Source of the DNA: Patescibacteria group bacterium
Lineage (GTDB): Bacteria; Patescibacteriota; Patescibacteriia; JBBTXB01
DNA length: 30,729 bases
Reading direction: 5' to 3'
Assembly (NCBI GenBank): GCA_038062475.1
Contig: JBBTXB010000127.1
Span: forward strand, 1-30,729
Part shown: one piece after another, positions 13,151 through 26,698 of the stretch
How the letters are laid out: every line of letters starts with the position of its first letter
How positions within the stretch are numbered: the first letter of the stretch is position 1
Translations under genes and position numbers: made by a program
The notes under the pieces: model-generated
Database searches by the model: none
What the model was told of the DNA's origin: nothing
The model's input: the letters and a program-made list of their open reading frames with translations, nothing else

Positions 13151-14137
13151 TCAAAATATGCTCTTTCCATATTCCCAAATCTCGTCGTTCCCCTGCCCGC
13201 GCAACCAGTACCACCATTCAACGCCCCACACATACACTTCCGACAACCCCGCGCGGCGCGCAAACTCAACATTAGAACGCACCCGTTCCGCGTCCATAGA
13301 CTTGTACTGTTCAGAAAGCGGCGTTTCGGGAATCGCGCGCGCGACCCACGGTTCAACTTGTAACTCGGTGATGATGACGCGCGGGGTGAGTGAGCGGATC
13401 GCTTCCGCGCGGTAACGATAAAACCCGGGCGTAATCGGATAATAAAAATAACCAAGAAACTTAGTCCACACGACGCGATACATGCTGATTCCCAGAATAT
13501 CGCCCAATTCGGCTGCAGGAAGCCACGTGGACAGTTCTCCACTGTCCGTCACAACAATCGGCCGCGTGGAATCAAGCGAACGGACTAGTTCAATTTCTTT
13601 CTTCAAAAATTCAACATCCGGTGGCGGGCACTCGCCGAAATCAAAGAGTGGCTCATTTTCCACCTGCCACGCCCAGACGGCCTTTGAGCCGCGATAACGG
13701 GAAACGACGCGCTGGAGCATCGCGAGCGTCCTCAGCTGCCGTCGCTCCACGGTCGCATTCTTGATCCAGCTCGGAAAATGGCACTCGGGCCAGCGCGGGA
13801 GCTTCTGTCCAACGGCAAGAAGCACCTTAGCGTCGCGCGCCTCTGCTTCACGAAGCTGCCAATCAAGATCGTCAAAGACAAAGCGCCCCGTCTCCGGCTC
13901 TATTTCATCCCAATACGCCGGAATCCGGAGCAGCCGTACGCCAAGTTCATCCAAGACGGCGGTGTACGCCGCGCGCCAGTCCAAGCCGAGCGACTGGGCG
14001 TATTTTTTTGAAAAAGTCGCTCCGAAAACGACGGGGCCGTTCGGAAAATTCTCACGCGCGATGCGGACAAAAAAAACTGCGGCAGCAACGCCAATAATAG
14101 CAAGTCCGCCAATGAGCCAGATGGTTCGGCGTTTCAT
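13151..14137 (-). CDS. Membrane-anchored clan GH-A (TIM-barrel) glycoside hydrolase, family uncertain
   Basis: N-terminal TM helix. WQVENEP (acid/base-like) and IITELQ (nucleophile-like) motifs. Starts 6 nt upstream of the GH1 gene. Confidence 0.55.
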   Translation of the reverse strand: MKRRTIWLIGGLAIIGVAAAVFFVRIARENFPNGPVVFGATFSKKYAQSLGLDWRAAYTAVLDELGVRLLRIPAYWDEIEPETGRFVFDDLDWQLREAEARDAKVLLAVGQKLPRWPECHFPSWIKNATVERRQLRTLAMLQRVVSRYRGSKAVWAWQVENEPLFDFGECPPPDVEFLKKEIELVRSLDSTRPIVVTDSGELSTWLPAAELGDILGISMYRVVWTKFLGYFYYPITPGFYRYRAEAIRSLTPRVIITELQVEPWVARAIPETPLSEQYKSMDAERVRSNVEFARRAGLSEVYVWGVEWWYWLRGQGNDEIWEYGKSIF

Positions 14138-14145
14138 AAATCGGA

Positions 14146-14212
14146 GAACGTAGAACGTAGAACTTAGAACGTAGACCGATCCTACGTACTACCTTCTACA
14201 TACTACCTACTA
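14146..14212. repeat. Inverted heptamer-array element, GTAGAAC family
   Basis: Reads GAACGTAGAACGTAGAACTTAGAACGTAGAC ... CTACGTACTACCTTCTACATACTACCTAC. The 24-mer at 14151-14174 is the exact reverse complement of 23631-23654. Confidence 0.8.
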
Positions 14213-14225
14213 AGCCCTTCTGCTC

Positions 14226-14444
14226 TCACGCTTCCGCGATATATTCGTCAAAACGCTCGCGTAAAACCCGCTCCAATTCTTCCAGTTCTTCATCATCGTG
14301 CATTTCGCCGACTGCGCGATGCTCCTCAATAACCTCCTCAACAAGGACATCCCACTCATCGTGAGCTGTTACTCCTTGCTCCCTCGCGCGGCGTTCCGCT
14401 TCGCGATACAGCCCTTCGGGGGTATAAGCCAAGTTCTCGGTCAT
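14226..14444 (-). CDS. Small acidic hypothetical protein (72 aa)
   Basis: Clean ORF with a helical, Glu/Asp-rich product. No recognisable motifs. Confidence 0.5.
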   Translation of the reverse strand: MTENLAYTPEGLYREAERRAREQGVTAHDEWDVLVEEVIEEHRAVGEMHDDEELEELERVLRERFDEYIAEA

Positions 14445-14755: not shown

Positions 14756-14786
14756 AAAAAAACCGTCCCAGCTGTTGCCAGGACGG
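14756..14786 (-). terminator. Rho-independent terminator closing the Ubl/E1/E2 cassette
   Basis: On the minus strand: CCGTCC-TGGCAACAGCTG-GGACGG followed by TTTTTTT, about 50 nt after the Ubl stop. Confidence 0.75.
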
Positions 14787-14833
14787 CGCTTGTTGAGTGA
14801 AGGCGTTTCCGCCTTTTGCGAAAGAACTACGAA

Positions 14834-15121
14834 CTACGATCCCTGCGGTCGTTCGGTGACCGTGATGCGCGCTCCCATCGAGATGGGGGTCGAGAGGTCG
14901 GTTACCGCTTTCCCGTTGACCGAAACGTCCCGCCGCTCGGAGCTCACGCCCGCCTGCGCGAGCACGTCCTTGACGGTCGCCTCCGCCCCCGCCATGACGA
15001 CCGGCTTCTCCTGCACGTCGCCCTGCGTCGGCACATACGTCACCGTAAGCCGCAGCTCGCTCGGCTTCCGCTTCGCGCCAGTCGTGCCCTTCTTCTTCTG
15101 ACCCTTCTTCTTCGCTCCCAT
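14834..15121 (-). CDS. Ubiquitin-like beta-grasp protein (ThiS/MoaD-like, 95 aa) with a Lys-rich N-terminal tail and a C-terminal ...RPQGS
   Basis: AAGGAGG lies 7 nt upstream of the ATG at 15121. The tail is MGAKKKGQKKKGTTGAKRKP. The core LRLTVTYV...ATVKDVLAQAGV...DVSVNGKAV...GARITVTERPQGS follows the ThiS/MoaD strand-helix pattern. Starts 13 nt downstream of the E1-like gene. Confidence 0.65.
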   Translation of the reverse strand: MGAKKKGQKKKGTTGAKRKPSELRLTVTYVPTQGDVQEKPVVMAGAEATVKDVLAQAGVSSERRDVSVNGKAVTDLSTPISMGARITVTERPQGS

Positions 15122-15134
15122 GCTCTTCCTCCTT

Positions 15135-15788
15135 CTACGGGGTGATGACCCGCGGCTTGTGTGCGGAGTACGCGAAGTTGAATTGCTTTGCGCCTTCCGT
15201 CCACCAGCCCGCAACGACAGCGCACGCCGCAGCTGCCGCTACCGTTGCAACATACACGATTCCATGATTGCCGCAAGTCGGCCGAAGCGCCTTGCTTCCG
15301 GGGTACAGAAGCTTCTCGTAATCGGCAACGTCATCCGGGTCGTTCGGATTCACCGCAAGGTTACGTACGAACTCGCCCGCAACTCTCGTGTCAACGAGAA
15401 GATCAACGGCCAAATTAATCTTTACCTGTTTCCAGATGAGCATCCGCGCTTCCATGGAGTCCACGCAGGCGATGACAGTGCCCCGAAGCGGCTCTCCTGT
15501 ATACATCGCGCGGATCGCGTTGATTTCAAGACCGCTCTGCTCGCGAACGATCTCCGCAAGCGCCTCCACCTTGTAGCGACCCTGGTCTTTGAGGCGATAG
15601 GCGCTCATGGGAACATTGTGGGATTCAACGGCGTCTCTGTCGTAGACGGTGATCTTTGAGACCCCCATTTTCGGGAGCATGGTGACGACGAAGCTCCCGA
15701 CAGAACCCGCGCCGATCACCGTAACCGGTCGGGCGACCGTTCGATTGAAGATGCGTTGCTGCTGCGAGAAATTGAGTTCAGATTCCAT
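15135..15788 (-). CDS. Minimal ThiF/MoeB/E1-like adenylyltransferase (217 aa)
   Basis: Motifs VTVIGAGSVGS (GxGxxG), VYDRDAVESHN, GRYKVEAL, IACVDS and RPTCGNHG. No CxxC zinc motif or rhodanese module. Only a 3-nt gap to the upstream gene. Confidence 0.75.
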   Translation of the reverse strand: MESELNFSQQQRIFNRTVARPVTVIGAGSVGSFVVTMLPKMGVSKITVYDRDAVESHNVPMSAYRLKDQGRYKVEALAEIVREQSGLEINAIRAMYTGEPLRGTVIACVDSMEARMLIWKQVKINLAVDLLVDTRVAGEFVRNLAVNPNDPDDVADYEKLLYPGSKALRPTCGNHGIVYVATVAAAAACAVVAGWWTEGAKQFNFAYSAHKPRVITP

Positions 15789-15791
15789 TGG

Positions 15792-17246
15792 CTAGACAAC
15801 CTCCACGCCGGGAACAACCGGCCACTCTTCAATCCTCGCCTCCGCAAGCTCCGGAGAGTAGCCGGTCTTCAACCAGCGGATCACGAGTGCGAAGCATTCG
15901 GAGTACCGGGATTCGCCTGCCAGTTTCGCGACAAGAGCCGTGGCGTTCCCGAAACAGGCGACGCCGCTTCTCCCGATATGCGGGTGGTGCAAGCCGTCAG
16001 GGTGCGTCGGCGCCTCGCTCCAGACAGTAACCGCTCCCGTGCCTCCGATGCGAATGACGAAGGCGCCCAATGCGTAGCGTTGCCCTTCCCACTCCGCCTC
16101 AATGGGGCGGGTCTCTACCTGCAGTCCCCCGTCCAGAATCCACACACGCGCCACATCCGGCTGTTTTTTTATCTGTTGGTACTCCCGCGGAAGGCGCGCC
16201 GCGAGCTCTGTGCGAAATGGGGACTTTTCGTATGTGTCAACCAGCGCCTTCAACCGATTCCTTTGTTGGATGGCCTCCGTGAGAAGCTTCTGGAACTCGG
16301 CGATATTGCGGATAGCCGCGGCCTCCTCTCCCCGAACGACTTTCACCAGGGAATCCGCCCACTCCCCAACCGCCTCCACGAACTCTGTCTTCCCGACGCT
16401 CTTGTACCCCGCGGGGTACTTGTGCCCCTCGGGGTACTTGTGCCCCTCGGGGTACTTGTGCCCCTCGGGGTACTTGTGCCCCTCGGGGTGCTTGCGATGC
16501 CAGTTCCATGCCAGGGCGAGGAGGCGTTCAAAAATGATGGGGCTGTGGCTATGGAAGTACGGAATGGTCGGCACAAGGAAATAGAAGTTCGATCCGAGCG
16601 CTTGTACGAGCGGGACTCCCGTTGCATCGGCGAGCGCCTCGCCTCGCCCTCGCGCGGGACCCACCGCACTCACCATGGAGCAGTCCTCCAGAATCGGCTG
16701 GCCGAAAGCGGTGGCGACAGTGCGGAATTCGGACTCGCCGGGCGGCCTACAATTGGAGAAGATGTGTATCTCGCCTTCCTTTTCGGGGTACGGATCACAC
16801 ACATCGGCTCCATAATGGAAGTGGACGCGCGCGCCGGAAAGGCACGAGAAGCGTTCTAATATTTTCTGATGCGTCGCAAGCGCATGGTCTGTCTTCTTCG
16901 TCTTGGGAAGAGAGACCGCGAGGATGTCATGATTCTGGATGACAACTTCGGGCGTTTGCCAGATGAACAACAGCACTTGCTTTTTCTCGCGCTCGGCCGC
17001 GTACATTGCCACCTTCCCGGATGGTAAAAGGGGGTGCGCCCGGCAGTAGATATCCGCGACGCTCTTCCCGCGCTTGGAGGCAAGGAGAAAACCGTCTATG
17101 TCGAAATGGCCGACCTTCAGTACCGCCTTGCGCGGAGCGATCCCCAATGCTCGATATTCCTTGAGCTTCGGCGCCACGATGGCTGCCGGAAGCGCAATCT
17201 CTCCTGTCTTTACAGGCTCTTCTACGATGTCAGTAGCCGAATCCAT
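15792..17246 (-). CDS. Multidomain protein (484 aa): unknown N-domain with two HxH motifs, a (YPEGHK)n repeat, a coiled-coil segment and a C-terminal UBC/E2-like domain
   Basis: GGAGGAGGG lies 5 nt upstream of the ATG. The C-terminal segment LPREYQQIKKQP...YALGAFVIRI...HHPHIGRSGVACFGN...YSECFALVIRWL parallels a UBC core (see findings). Domain assignment is by eye only. Confidence 0.6.
   Translation of the reverse strand: MDSATDIVEEPVKTGEIALPAAIVAPKLKEYRALGIAPRKAVLKVGHFDIDGFLLASKRGKSVADIYCRAHPLLPSGKVAMYAAEREKKQVLLFIWQTPEVVIQNHDILAVSLPKTKKTDHALATHQKILERFSCLSGARVHFHYGADVCDPYPEKEGEIHIFSNCRPPGESEFRTVATAFGQPILEDCSMVSAVGPARGRGEALADATGVPLVQALGSNFYFLVPTIPYFHSHSPIIFERLLALAWNWHRKHPEGHKYPEGHKYPEGHKYPEGHKYPAGYKSVGKTEFVEAVGEWADSLVKVVRGEEAAAIRNIAEFQKLLTEAIQQRNRLKALVDTYEKSPFRTELAARLPREYQQIKKQPDVARVWILDGGLQVETRPIEAEWEGQRYALGAFVIRIGGTGAVTVWSEAPTHPDGLHHPHIGRSGVACFGNATALVAKLAGESRYSECFALVIRWLKTGYSPELAEARIEEWPVVPGVEVV
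16413..16484. repeat. Perfect 18-bp tandem repeat x4 (GGGGTACTTGTGCCCCTC) inside the E2-like gene
   Basis: Read directly. Degenerate units flank it (about 16401-16497). It encodes in-frame YPEGHK hexapeptides. Confidence 0.95.
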
Positions 17247-17271
17247 TCAACCCTCCTCCATAGAAGTTGCA

Positions 17272-17300
17272 ATTGTAAAAGTACAAAACCGGCCTGCCAT
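17272..17300 (-). promoter_or_regulatory. Candidate sigma70-type promoter of the Ubl/E1/E2 cassette
   Basis: On the minus strand: -35 ATGGCA, a 17-nt spacer, then -10 TACAAT, about 25 nt upstream of the start codon. Confidence 0.3.
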
Positions 17301-17478: not shown

Positions 17479-17676
17479 GAGACCGCTGAAAAACTCTCTG
17501 TTAACCCCTGAGCTTGTCGAAGGGCTGACAGAACTAAGTCAAAGTTTGCCCTTCGACTTCGCTCAGGGAATATCTTCACTTCGTTACGATGCCGCCTCTC
17601 CTCGCTCGGAAACGAAGTGCGACTTCGCTTCACTCGCTCGTCAGGCGATAAATTTTGGCAGTTTTTCAGCGGTCTC
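17479..17676. mobile_element. MITE-like element (198 bp) with perfect 17-bp terminal inverted repeats GAGACCGCTGAAAAACT / AGTTTTTCAGCGGTCTC
   Basis: The repeats are read directly. The interior carries CCTGAGCTTGTCGAAGG (17507-17523) and CCCTTCGACTTCGCTCAGGG (17549-17568). The right repeat supplies the last codons and the stop of the 206-aa gene. Confidence 0.7.
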
Positions 17677-18286
17677 CCCGTTTCCACGCCGTGATTTCCC
17701 CGGCGCGGATTTCTATGGGGTCCGCGCGGCGGAGCGTGCGCAGTTGCGCGCGGGAGAGGATCGGGACGTGCGGCACTCCATCAATGTATTCGGGGACATA
17801 CCACACGTCTTCAACGGATGTCATCCACCCGCGCCGATCAAAGCGGGAGAGGTCAACCGGTTGCGAGTATGAACGGAGTGTCTTTTTGCCGTTCTTTAAA
17901 AAATATTCGTGGAAAAACGAAAGCGCCAGCTCGCGGATGGATGCGTAGATCGGCTCGCGGTAGCGCAACACAGCATGGTTTGTTTTGGTAATCGCGCCCC
18001 ATGCTCCGTGCTGCCGGAACACGGCGATCACATGATCGTCGTCTTCGTCCGCGGCCTTGAGGTCAACAACGAGCGGCCGATGCCCCAGGAGCCGAAGAGC
18101 CGCCGCCGCGAGCATCGCCCCTTCCATGCAATGGGCGCGGCGACGCGCGAGCACTGTTCGCGGCGACAGGCATGTTTCTCTCCCTTTCTCAAAATTTATC
18201 GGAATCCTCTCCAAAAAATCCTGAATCTTCCGCGGCGTATTGAGCGCCCCAAGAATCTTCAACTCATCTCTCGTAAATCCGTACAT
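17666..18286 (-). CDS. Transglutaminase-like / papain-fold cysteine peptidase superfamily protein (206 aa)
   Basis: Cys motif RRAHCMEGAMLAAAALRLLG, followed by DDDHVIAVF and GAWGAITKTN (candidate His and Asp/Asn). Starts 16 nt downstream of the membrane protein gene. Confidence 0.5.
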   Translation of the reverse strand: MYGFTRDELKILGALNTPRKIQDFLERIPINFEKGRETCLSPRTVLARRRAHCMEGAMLAAAALRLLGHRPLVVDLKAADEDDDHVIAVFRQHGAWGAITKTNHAVLRYREPIYASIRELALSFFHEYFLKNGKKTLRSYSQPVDLSRFDRRGWMTSVEDVWYVPEYIDGVPHVPILSRAQLRTLRRADPIEIRAGEITAWKRGDR

Positions 18287-23035: not shown

Positions 23036-23045
23036 CTCAAAACTG

Positions 23046-23132
23046 CCAAAATTTAGTTCCTGAGCTTGTCGAAGGACTAAATCTTGGCGCAGTTAATGGA
23101 GTGGCCTTCGACTTCGCTTCGCTTCGCTCAGG
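23046..23132. repeat. CCTGAGC/TCGAAGG-core repeat element inserted between blaI and the M56 gene
   Basis: Reads CCAAAATTTAGTTCCTGAGCTTGTCGAAGGACTAAATCTTGG ... CCTTCGACTTCGCTTCGCTTCGCTCAGG. Its core is shared with 19357-19400. Confidence 0.75.
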
Positions 23133-23559: not shown

Positions 23560-23654
23560 GTTAGTACGTAGTGAGTAGAACGTAGAAGGTAGAAGTGTTG
23601 AACGTAGAGATCAACCGCTCCGTCTACGTACTACGTTCTAAGTTCTACGTTCTA
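23560..23654. repeat. Inverted heptamer-array element of the GTAGAAC family, in the blaI leader
   Basis: Left arm GTAGTGA GTAGAAC GTAGAAG GTAGAAG; right arm CGTCTAC GTACTAC GTTCTAA GTTCTAC GTTCTAA. Confidence 0.8.
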
Positions 23655-26286: not shown

Positions 26287-26475
26287 TTAGAACTCGTGAG
26301 GAATACCGAGGTCTTTACAAATCTTTTTGGCAAGGAAGTCGTCAATTTCAGTGTGCCTCGGAACAGTGGAGATACGACGAGTTGCCGGATTAAAAAAGAC
26401 GCTATGGTTTGCGCCCTCCCGGACAAACACACAGCCGTGTTTTCTCAGATGTTTGAGAAAATCTCGACGATTCAC
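26287..26475 (-). CDS. hicA: HicA-family mRNA interferase toxin
   Basis: LRKHGCVFVREGANHSVFFNP...RISTVPRHTEIDDFLAKKICKDLGI. The track ORF begins with TTG at 26532, inside hicB. A GTG at 26475, 4 nt after the hicB stop, gives a typical 62-aa HicA. Confidence 0.75.
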   Translation of the reverse strand: MNRRDFLKHLRKHGCVFVREGANHSVFFNPATRRISTVPRHTEIDDFLAKKICKDLGIPHEF

Positions 26476-26479
26476 ACAC

Positions 26480-26698
26480 TTAGACGGCGAGCCGTTCCCG
26501 GATAACCCGTCCTCGCGGACGCTCCTTTTCAAGCATGGTTCTATTCACTTCTAGCACAAGCTCAAGCGCCTCTTTAAGGTTCTCTTTTACTTCTTTAAGC
26601 GTGCGGCCTTGGGTGTTCACTCCGGGTATCTCCTCAACCCATCCCAGGTACCATTTACCATGCTTTTGATAGGCGGCGGTGTATTGCATATCTAGCAT
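26480..26698 (-). CDS. hicB: HicB-family antitoxin (short, no DNA-binding extension)
   Basis: YTAAYQKHGKWYLGWVEEIPGVNTQGRTLKEVKENLKEALELVLE matches the HicB/UPF0150 pattern. Lies directly upstream of hicA. Confidence 0.75.
   Translation of the reverse strand: MLDMQYTAAYQKHGKWYLGWVEEIPGVNTQGRTLKEVKENLKEALELVLEVNRTMLEKERPRGRVIRERLAV

Follow-up and report, generated by a model that had tools for sequence, protein, structure and literature searches.

We analyzed a 30,729-nucleotide stretch of a Patescibacteria metagenome-assembled genome (contig JBBTXB010000127.1; hereafter the window) that carries a compact cassette of three minus-strand genes encoding a protein with an E2-like C-terminal domain, an E1-like adenylating enzyme and a ubiquitin-like protein (Ubl). 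Gene 1 (15792–17246, minus strand) encodes a 484-residue protein built from a variable N-terminus, a conserved N-domain, a repeat, a coiled coil and the E2-like domain; gene 2 (15135–15788, minus strand) encodes a minimal 217-residue ThiF/E1-like enzyme; and gene 3 (14834–15121, minus strand) encodes, counted from its ATG, a 95-residue predicted SAMP2/ThiS-like beta-grasp Ubl. Gaps of 3 nt and 13 nt separate gene 1 from gene 2 and gene 2 from gene 3, and direct reading of the sequence places a Shine-Dalgarno sequence GGAGGAGGG (17251–17259, minus strand) 4 nt 5′ of the gene 1 ATG and the sequence AAGGAGG ahead of the gene 3 ATG. The unit is closed by an intrinsic terminator (14756–14787, minus strand), where a hairpin spanning 14787–14762 combines an 11-pair stem (7 G-C) with a 4-nt loop and a run of seven T residues. 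A preliminary description made from the DNA alone had reported these open reading frames (ORFs), both gaps, both Shine-Dalgarno sequences and a strong terminator, and the sequence and ORF list of the window bear out each of them, down to the exact coordinates and lengths of the genes, together with all of the protein motifs quoted there (GAGSVGS, YDRDAVESHN, KVEA, CVDS, PTCGNHG and GVACFGN). The promoter placed at 17272–17300 (minus strand) upstream of gene 1 is present but weak, a sigma-70-like candidate of the form ATGGCA-17-TACAAT with 9 of 12 consensus matches; it is a consensus match only, in an upstream region holding two promoter-like sites where 0.8 are expected in shuffles. In the NCBI annotation of the same sequences, gene 2 is listed as MEK7516777.1, a 'ThiF family adenylyltransferase', and gene 3 as MEK7516776.1, a hypothetical protein.

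A minimal E1-like enzyme and a predicted SAMP2-like modifier

Sequence comparison places gene 2 among the ThiF/E1 adenylating enzymes. The protein matches the Pfam ThiF model PF00899 (8e-18, 64.8 bits against a cutoff of 28.1), and a profile of 15 homologues searched against the Protein Data Bank (PDB) retrieves ThiF (1.7e-10), UBA5 (1.8e-10), MccB (3.4e-9), PaaA (2.1e-8) and BubCD (1.7e-5), with further matches to TcdA, Cap2 and the NEDD8 E1. Residues G26, G28, G31, D50, K73, D110 and R115 are invariant in the 15 homologues and align on ThiF and UBA5, so that the nucleotide-binding residues are fixed in these homologues and the earlier assignment of a bare ThiF/E1 domain stands. Scores against the models of NCBIfam fall well below their cutoffs: the ThiF models give 52.7–52.8 bits for cutoffs of 159 and 275 (TIGR02356, 3e-14), the PRTRC ThiF model TIGR03736 gives 36.6 bits (cutoff 144.75), UbaA 29.7 (450) and MoeB 15.8–21.1 (266–449). 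The E1–E2 models of PADLOC match residues 10–99 only, corresponding to the Rossmann core. By sequence inspection the protein also lacks the accessory modules of larger relatives, in agreement with the preliminary description, since its three cysteines form no CxxC pair that could make a zinc module and 217 residues leave no room for a rhodanese domain.

One of the three cysteines, Cys172 (15273–15275, minus strand), lies in a CGxHG motif that is invariant in the 15 homologues and precedes a hydrophobic helix, making it a candidate E1 catalytic or crossover-loop cysteine. The crossover-loop cysteine of ThiF, MoeB and UBA5 presumably occupies the same place, an equivalence that could not be shown by alignment. 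Local profile alignments of gene 2 with E1 enzymes stop near residue 120, and attempts to align the C-terminal half with known E1 enzymes failed and returned chance matches to ARIH1, and attempts with ThiF and UBA5 sequences failed likewise; we therefore only infer that Cys172 is the catalytic cysteine. The equivalent of the N-x-x-R-Q phosphate-binding motif reads ESHNVPM (residues 54–60; 15609–15629, minus strand) and has no Arg, for which the invariant arginines R115 and R135 might compensate to judge from the sequence.

The product of gene 3 is, on sequence grounds, a predicted beta-grasp modifier of the SAMP2/ThiS type, as originally proposed. A profile of 15 homologues matches Pyrococcus PF1061/SAMP2 (2.9e-4) and Haloferax SAMP2 (4e-3), and in Pfam eight of the 15 homologues match SAMP2 (best 2.4e-6) and seven match ThiS, a model that gene 3 by itself barely reaches (0.0095). 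Homologues range from 73 to 95 residues and diverge to an overall identity of about 30%, with E90, G94 and S95 invariant. The C-terminal tail, ERPQGS in the window (14837–14854, minus strand), stays fixed while the rest of the protein falls to about 30–45% identity: all complete Ubls (at least 18 distinct sequences) end in Gly-Ser and never in Gly-Gly, and all but one carry ERP[QRKA]GS, the exception being EPITGS. In characterized Ubls and sulfur carriers the residue that becomes activated is a C-terminal Gly, usually that of Gly-Gly. A Lys-rich tail had been described for the Ubl and is indeed present, but it sits at the N-terminus and occurs in some lineages only, without conservation across the family.

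A predicted E2-like domain at the end of gene 1

The C-terminal region of gene 1 (residues 343–478; 15813–16220, minus strand) had been proposed to carry an E2-like fold, and structure prediction and profile comparison both support that proposal. An AlphaFold2 model built from an input alignment of 42 sequences (pLDDT 95.7) contains a helix at model positions 4–21, a six-stranded meander, a loop bearing HPH and Cys, and helices at 94–105 and 109–122. When the model was compared with the PDB using Foldseek, E2 enzymes made up 47 of the top 50 matches (E 2.8e-3 to 0.1; TM 0.3–0.5), and all ten matches of the E2-like profile to the PDB with E <1 are E2 enzymes as well, the best being UBE2L3 (0.036). 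The candidate thioester site is HPHIGRSGVAC (15954–15986, minus strand), comprising His421-Pro-His423 and Cys431; H421, H423 and C431 are invariant across 76 homologues and P422 is 99% conserved. Profile alignment superimposes this segment gap-free on HPNIDEKGQVC, the UbcH7 motif bearing the E2 catalytic cysteine, so that HPH-x7-C and HPN-x7-Cys share the same spacing and an invariant His stands at the E2 Asn position. Two hallmarks of UBC/E2 proteins are thus found in the modeled domain, the alpha/beta fold (at TM 0.3–0.5 only) and the H-P-x...Cys spacing. Because the Foldseek and profile matches are E2 enzymes and the HPH...Cys motif aligns without a gap, we interpret the gene 1 C-terminus, from sequence and model, as a diverged domain of the UBC type in which the active-site spacing of classical E2 enzymes is retained and His replaces Asn. 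Curated E2 models gave one match to UQ_con at E = 0.2 among 42 domains scanned and none to Prok-E2_A to E.

Gene 1 and 76 of its relatives match no model in Pfam, NCBIfam, PADLOC or PHROGs. Word-indexed homology searches return only two to five relatives, and the family becomes visible only by exhaustive profile search, which recovers 1,659 cluster representatives at E ≤1e-3 and 171 at ≤1e-30, mostly of 430–550 residues and alike in overall layout. A family of this size has gone unnamed in routine annotation because none of the searched domain models covers gene 1. Six residues are invariant in the 76 homologues, at identities down to 20%, and all of them (H421, H423, C431, G433, Y463 and W475) belong to the C-terminal 140 residues. 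Conservation is poor over the first 115 residues. These are followed by the conserved N-domain (residues 116–255; 16482–16901, minus strand), whose conserved positions across the 76 homologues, including the motifs PPG and GRG and residues Q215 and Y222, are mostly Pro and Gly; no conserved nucleophile is seen there in these homologues, and a profile search of the PDB finds no relative of known structure. Residues 286–341 (16224–16391, minus strand), a predicted long helix or coiled coil, form one continuous helix in a full-length model of gene 1, and their profile matches in the PDB are coiled-coil proteins only. This full-length model was poor (pLDDT 52) and its fold search returned noise only, and the whole-protein profile gave nothing but coiled-coil noise in the PDB.

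Between the N-domain and the coiled coil, an 18-nt in-frame tandem repeat (16401–16494, minus strand; 5.2 copies) encodes PEGHKY units. This is the His/Lys repeat of the preliminary description, with the correction that it is an insertion restricted to the gene 1 of the window's lineage, other homologues being without it. Hainich groundwater contigs that are 99.6–99.99% identical to the window differ in repeat copy number. A near-identical population contig (L032) has 4.2 copies and a gene 1 of 478 residues, and another such contig (L031, 7196–7421) is interrupted within the repeat by a 100-N scaffold gap, which is flanked by 3.3 and 3.7 copies.

The three genes are linked across lineages and diverge faster than their flanks

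Related loci were collected by looking up identical proteins and by a single scan each of species genomes and metagenomes, which yielded 36 loci, about 20 of them distinct, from Patescibacteria (including Candidatus Uhrbacteria), Candidatus Binatia and unassigned metagenome contigs. At every locus whose contig reaches far enough, gene 1 is followed by the ThiF gene and then by the Ubl gene on one strand with overlapping or near-overlapping ends, and this order is kept even beside gene 1 relatives of 22% identity, consistent with the expectation that gene 1 homologues would co-occur with ThiF and Ubl genes. Neighboring genes differ by lineage and often lie on the opposite strand; they encode RuvB, DHH, cyclophilin, NUDIX and SLT proteins, endonuclease/exonuclease/phosphatase (EEP) family phosphoesterases, a RecB-like nuclease and S-adenosylmethionine synthetase. 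Clustering of the neighbors from all loci found no family recurring outside related genomes, and thus no conserved fourth gene, so we take the unit to be these three genes. Genes for JAB, DUF6527, nucleotidyltransferase, ParB and sulfurtransferase proteins and thi, moa and tRNA-thiolation genes were not found at the retrieved loci; the absence of a JAB gene noted in the window therefore extends to all of them, and at none is the trio embedded in a thiamine, molybdopterin or tRNA-thiolation operon. The species-genome scan used two narrow peptide patterns and matched one of 185,579 species genomes, the Binatia locus, a figure that is an undercount because the patterns are narrow. Searches with tblastn using three gene 1 family members against a phage collection and two against a plasmid collection found nothing, one pattern scan of IMG/VR found no copy of the cassette, and genes 1 and 3 have no PADLOC match. 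At five loci (L002, L005, L014, L035 and L036) the cassette is always preceded on its own strand by one or two Exo_endo_phos (EEP) genes, located about 90–140 nt upstream; L005 is a Binatia metagenome-assembled genome whose context the other four share, and the association may reflect the shared ancestry of L005-type genomes.

Comparison of closely related loci shows that the cassette diverges far more than the DNA around it. A related genome, represented by L001 and L033 from one sequencing run, carries the cassette at the same locus as the window, where the flanking proteins of the window and L001 are 85–99% identical but identity drops to 42% for gene 1, 58% for gene 2 and 45% for gene 3. 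Among the neighbors conserved in this relative, a 72-residue protein is 98.6% and a glycoside hydrolase 85% identical, and the upstream DNA is about 90% identical (13151–14444 and 17666–18286; L001, L004 and L033), while no nucleotide similarity is found inside the cassette between the window and L001/L033. Loci of the Uhrbacteria type (L018, L021 and L034) behave alike, with flanks at 77–90% identity against 46–55% for gene 1. The window E1 is 54–58% identical to that of the relative with 85–99% identical flanks and 55% identical to the Binatia copy, and is thus no closer to the former. Within gene 1, the first 115 residues and the coiled coil have diverged most (13–35% identity; 55% in one pair) and the E2-like domain least (50–60%). 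Neither this fast divergence of the cassette nor the invariant Gly-Ser end of the Ubl had been noted in the preliminary description. Such divergence of the cassette relative to its flanks fits diversifying pressure or allele replacement and does not prove a defensive role. Because the cassette outpaces its flanks in divergence and the repeat varies, the data weakly suggest a conflict-type role, such as anti-phage defense or symbiont–host interaction.

Comparison with known conjugation systems and phage modules

We compared the cassette with characterized systems and found that it departs from the hallmarks of the Bil, Bub, CBASS Cap2/3 and PRTRC systems and of sulfur carriers, in keeping with the initial impression that its layout is unlike Bil, CBASS, PRTRC or pupylation. 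In operon types 6a–6e of Iyer et al. 2006 a JAB domain is always fused or adjacent (PMC1779556), unlike in the cassette. Type I Bil (BilABCD), which corresponds to operon type 6d (PMC1779556; PMC11601596; PMC10557695), resembles the cassette in encoding the Ubl, the E2 and the E1 separately and lacking an E3, in Cys-thioester transfer of the kind proposed for the cassette, and in an E2 thought to choose the target, Bil E2 enzymes having been proposed to recognize targets directly (PMC11601596). However, the Bil operon includes the JAB/JAMM peptidase BilC and a multidomain E1 with inactive and active adenylation domains and a Cys domain, whereas the cassette has no JAB gene at any locus, its E1 is a single 217-residue ThiF domain, its E2-like domain is fused behind the N-domain and coiled coil, and genes 1 and 3 go unrecognized by PADLOC. 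Bub systems of types I and II correspond to operon type 6e/DUF6527, and in these the E1 and E2 lack a catalytic Cys, follow an oxyester route, are fused (as E2-E1, or as Ubl-E2 plus JAB-E1) and are always accompanied by the DUF6527 serine protease BubE (PMC11601596). Type II Bub resembles the cassette as a compact bacterial E1/E2/Ubl set that usually lacks a JAB peptidase, and its unusual chemistry around the transfer steps has a proposed counterpart in the cassette. By contrast, the cassette enzymes each keep an invariant Cys (Cys431 and Cys172) and are encoded by separate genes without a fourth gene, and the gene 2 profile matches BubCD only at 1.7e-5. In type II CBASS (Cap2/Cap3), an E2-E1 fusion protein is encoded beside a CD-NTase and a JAB peptidase, whereas the cassette genes are separate and neither of those two genes is nearby.

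Archaeal sampylation offers a different comparison. Profile comparison relates the Ubl most closely to SAMP2, and both systems use a small ThiF-type E1 without the extra domains of eukaryotic enzymes. Sampylation nevertheless operates without an E2, its modifiers end in Gly-Gly and a JAMM enzyme reverses it, whereas the cassette always includes the E2-like gene and its Ubl ends in Gly-Ser; the NCBIfam UbaA score of gene 2, already given, is far from its cutoff (29.7 bits against 450). In the eukaryotic UBA5–UFC1 (UFM1) pathway the E1 is similarly compact, UBA5 being a minimal homodimeric E1 with its catalytic Cys inside the adenylation domain, and it is among the best solved-structure matches of gene 2 (1.8e-10). 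Classical UBC E2 enzymes share the H-P-x...Cys spacing with the cassette domain but differ in having Asn rather than His as the third motif residue; the cassette domain also has a six-stranded sheet and fewer C-terminal helices, and superposes at TM 0.3–0.5. The cassette further differs from PRTRC, in that gene 2 is below the TIGR03736 cutoff, genes 1 and 3 match no PRTRC model and ParB is not nearby, and from ThiS/ThiF and MoaD/MoeB pairs, in that gene 2 is below the equivalog cutoffs and thiamine, molybdopterin and thiolation neighbors are missing. By analogy, its mode of action may resemble that of Bil, or that of a SAMP system supplemented by an E2. Our literature search found no description of this three-gene architecture; its coverage was incomplete and does not disprove existence elsewhere.

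Phages carry a set of genes that partly resembles the cassette. Searching BFVD with the E2-like model retrieved unnamed phage proteins of 408–522 residues (TM 0.49–0.64, probability 0.92–1.0), including A0A516LW79, A0A516KZW4, A0A516LAI7, A0A516M3P8, A0A8S5PR93, A0A1B0WLX5 and others. Gene 2 matches phrog_15670 near full length (1.3e-15) and is 31–32% identical to ThiF proteins of crAss-like and FpV4-type phages, and a Cys at a position comparable to Cys172 occurs in the ThiF-like proteins of FpV4 and a crAss-like phage. In a Kolpuevirus (L037, OQ198718, 2259–5666) and Flavobacterium phage FpV4 (L038, NC_041872, 2548–5618), three consecutive genes in the replication gene block encode a 388–420-residue protein with HSH[IL]...C[LI]G, a Prok-JAB protein of about 425 residues and a ThiF-like protein (phrog_15670), with no recognizable Ubl seen in the module. 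This trio may be an E2?-JAB-E1 module. The likeness to the cassette lies in the related ThiF protein, its comparable Cys and an HSH[IL]...C[LI]G gene two places upstream of ThiF; the difference lies in the Prok-JAB protein and in the upstream phage protein, which has no significant similarity to the E2-like profile. Homology of that protein to the E2-like domain is accordingly unsupported, with a best hhalign E of 0.03 at 1.7% probability and no hmmsearch match.

A proposed E1–E2–Ubl conjugation system and its alternatives

The bacterial ubiquitin-like conjugation systems characterized to date fall into three families, CBASS Cap2, Bil and Bub, and each altered views on the origin of ubiquitination and on bacterial phage defense. 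We consider it probable that the cassette encodes an autonomous E1–E2–Ubl system for ubiquitin-like conjugation, reduced to a minimum and belonging to a family that we did not find described. It would be the fourth and simplest such family, with a bare E1, an E2-like protein bearing His-Pro-x...Cys, a SAMP2-like modifier and no peptidase, in Patescibacteria, a group of which little is known biologically and in which small genomes leave few genes to spare. Strict linkage of the three genes, the invariant residues and Ubl tail and the identities of the domains are observed, whereas conjugation and the biological role are inferred. In the proposed mechanism, the 217-residue ThiF-type E1 would bind the SAMP2-like Ubl and drive ATP-dependent adenylation of its C-terminus (...ERPxGS); the Ubl may pass via the invariant Cys172 of the E1 and would then be handed to the invariant Cys431 of the gene 1 UBC-like domain, which lies 10 residues past the invariant His-Pro-His, the arrangement of a classical E2. 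The remainder of gene 1 would serve as an integral E3 in which the coiled coil oligomerizes and the fast-evolving N-terminal region selects the target, and the acceptor of the Ubl could be a target lysine or gene 1 itself. Because a deconjugating or processing peptidase is absent, the Ser-ended tail probably serves without processing, which would be unusual for an E1, and the invariant Gly-Ser end bears on what an E1 can activate. A more specific proposal, which we regard as a long shot, is a peptidase-free E1–E2–Ubl system, encountered here mostly in the uncultivated lineages Patescibacteria and Binatia, whose modifier is activated at or through Gly-Ser instead of Gly and in which gene 1, by way of its fast-evolving N-terminal region, is an E2/E3 recognizing foreign or host-cell proteins; the Ser carboxylate could then be adenylated, or the Ser hydroxyl could participate, for example by an N-to-O acyl shift. 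If true, this would be a novel chemistry of conjugation, put to use by ultra-small bacteria in immunity or symbiosis.

Several observations weigh against a conjugation system of this kind. Every mechanistic step is drawn from homology, and the E2 match is weak in absolute terms (profile E 0.036, Foldseek E ≥2.8e-3, TM ≤0.49). The E2-like domain has six strands rather than four, no member of the gene 1 family reaches Pfam UQ_con or any Prok-E2 model, and the unnamed phage proteins of BFVD match the domain model better than any solved E2. For the E1, the C-terminal half cannot be aligned to known E1 enzymes, leaving Cys172 a candidate catalytic residue, and the Arg of the N-x-x-R-Q phosphate-binding motif is missing, the family consensus being SHNIPMS where ThiF has SNLQRQ and UBA5 has ANMNRL. 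The Ubl ends in Gly-Ser and the cassette holds no peptidase to trim it. A defensive role in particular is opposed by neighbors that are housekeeping genes, by the lack of PADLOC matches for genes 1 and 3, by the failure to find copies in the phage and plasmid collections or the single IMG/VR pattern scan, and by a locus that is fixed within lineages, as for a vertically inherited gene set. The defensive hint that the preliminary description drew from the genomic context is for these reasons unsupported, and the nearby hicBA pair is irrelevant to it.

The same considerations lend some credit to an alternative in which the conjugation chemistry is as proposed but serves a housekeeping or regulatory role in small-genome bacteria, such as protein turnover or stress tagging comparable to pupylation and sampylation. 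Retention of the cassette in reduced Patescibacteria genomes, its fixed chromosomal position among housekeeping genes within a lineage, its place outside a defense island with neither PADLOC support for genes 1 and 3 nor copies in the phage, plasmid and IMG/VR searches, and the general protein-modifying role of the archaeal SAMP2 to which its Ubl is closest would all suit such a function. Yet the distribution appears patchy (1 of 185,579 genomes with the two narrow patterns), gene 1 is 42–55% identical where the flanks are 77–99%, repeat number varies within a population, and the window E1 is as close to the Binatia copy (55%) as to that of its relative (54–58%), a pattern rare for housekeeping systems; we hold this role to be possible but somewhat unlikely. 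A different question is whether gene 1 is a catalytic E2 at all, since the E1 alone could conjugate, as in UbaA–SAMP and Uba4–Urm1, leaving gene 1 as a target, a scaffold or a Cys/His peptidase. SAMP2 conjugation works without an E2, the similarity of gene 1 to E2 enzymes is weak, the lone Ser that follows Gly is reminiscent of the precursor extensions cleaved off by peptidases in other Ubl systems, and the conserved His and Cys could in principle make a hydrolase site. However, the HPH-to-Cys spacing is identical to that of a classical E2 in a gap-free alignment, the fold matches are E2 enzymes and not peptidases, and a passive target or scaffold would not need a motif that is invariant in 76 sequences otherwise about 20–40% identical, which makes a noncatalytic gene 1 improbable.

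Two further readings were weighed. A sulfur carrier of the ThiS/ThiF or MoaD/MoeB type, delivering a thiocarboxylate for cofactor synthesis or tRNA thiolation, would account for two findings: among named entries gene 2 scores best against ThiF (TIGR02356, 3e-14; PDB ThiF, 1.7e-10), and gene 3 weakly matches ThiS. We judge it very improbable, given that gene 2 is far under the equivalog cutoff (52.8 against 275 bits), that Gly-Ser and not Gly-Gly ends every complete Ubl seen, that the E1 has neither a rhodanese nor a zinc module, that thi, moa and tRNA-thiolation genes are absent near any locus, and that the E1/Ubl pair is always joined to the E2-like gene. Even less expected is a peptide-modifying system in which an MccB/PaaA-like E1 modifies the C-terminus of a small protein to give a secreted or toxic product, with gene 1 as an accessory or immunity factor. 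The E1 profile does match MccB (3.4e-9) and PaaA (2.1e-8), and MccB adenylates a C-terminal residue other than Gly. But gene 2 matches only the adenylation core of MccB and PaaA and lacks their N-terminal peptide clamp, its apparent substrate is a predicted folded beta-grasp protein of 73–95 residues and not a short peptide, and no exporter or immunity gene recurs, so that this reading is extremely unlikely.

Genomic surroundings of the cassette

The window has the character of an ordinary chromosome. Our reading of its translations identifies MurF-, FtsI-, RarA- and ClpB/C-like proteins, and further genes encode a class II ribonucleotide reductase, an IMP dehydrogenase and a glycoside hydrolase. 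The hicBA toxin–antitoxin pair reported about 9 kb from the cassette is real (26287–26698, minus strand; HicA_toxin 1e-12, UPF0150/HicB-like 1e-7; about 9–11 kb away), and no link between it and the cassette was seen. A miniature inverted-repeat transposable element (MITE)-like element suggested on the upstream side could not be substantiated: the spacer upstream of gene 1 shares only 17–22-nt matches with other spacers of the window (19412 and 23039–23075), and no MITE-like structure was established around the cassette. We rejected a mobile-element origin of the cassette for lack of evidence, as integrase and transposase genes are absent, flanking repeats are insubstantial and each lineage keeps the cassette at one position. 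Short 7-nt tandem repeats occur in the spacer downstream of the 72-residue gene, AGAACGT and CTACCTA (14145–14212), and an inverted copy of the first, 24–32 nt long, lies about 9.5 kb away (23622–23654).

Just upstream of the cassette, a minus-strand gene (17666–18286) encodes a 206-residue protein whose AHCMEG and DDDHVIAVF segments resemble a Cys/His hydrolase by eye only, and which has no match in Pfam, NCBIfam or PHROGs. It is about 90% conserved in the related genome (L033), but in other lineages the cassette occurs without it. We considered this gene as a fourth component, for example a peptidase, and rejected it because it accompanies the cassette only in the window's lineage and has no family match. 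Directly downstream of the cassette, a minus-strand gene (14226–14444) encodes a very acidic 72-residue protein without family assignment, which is 96–99% identical between genomes whose other genes are 77–85% identical.

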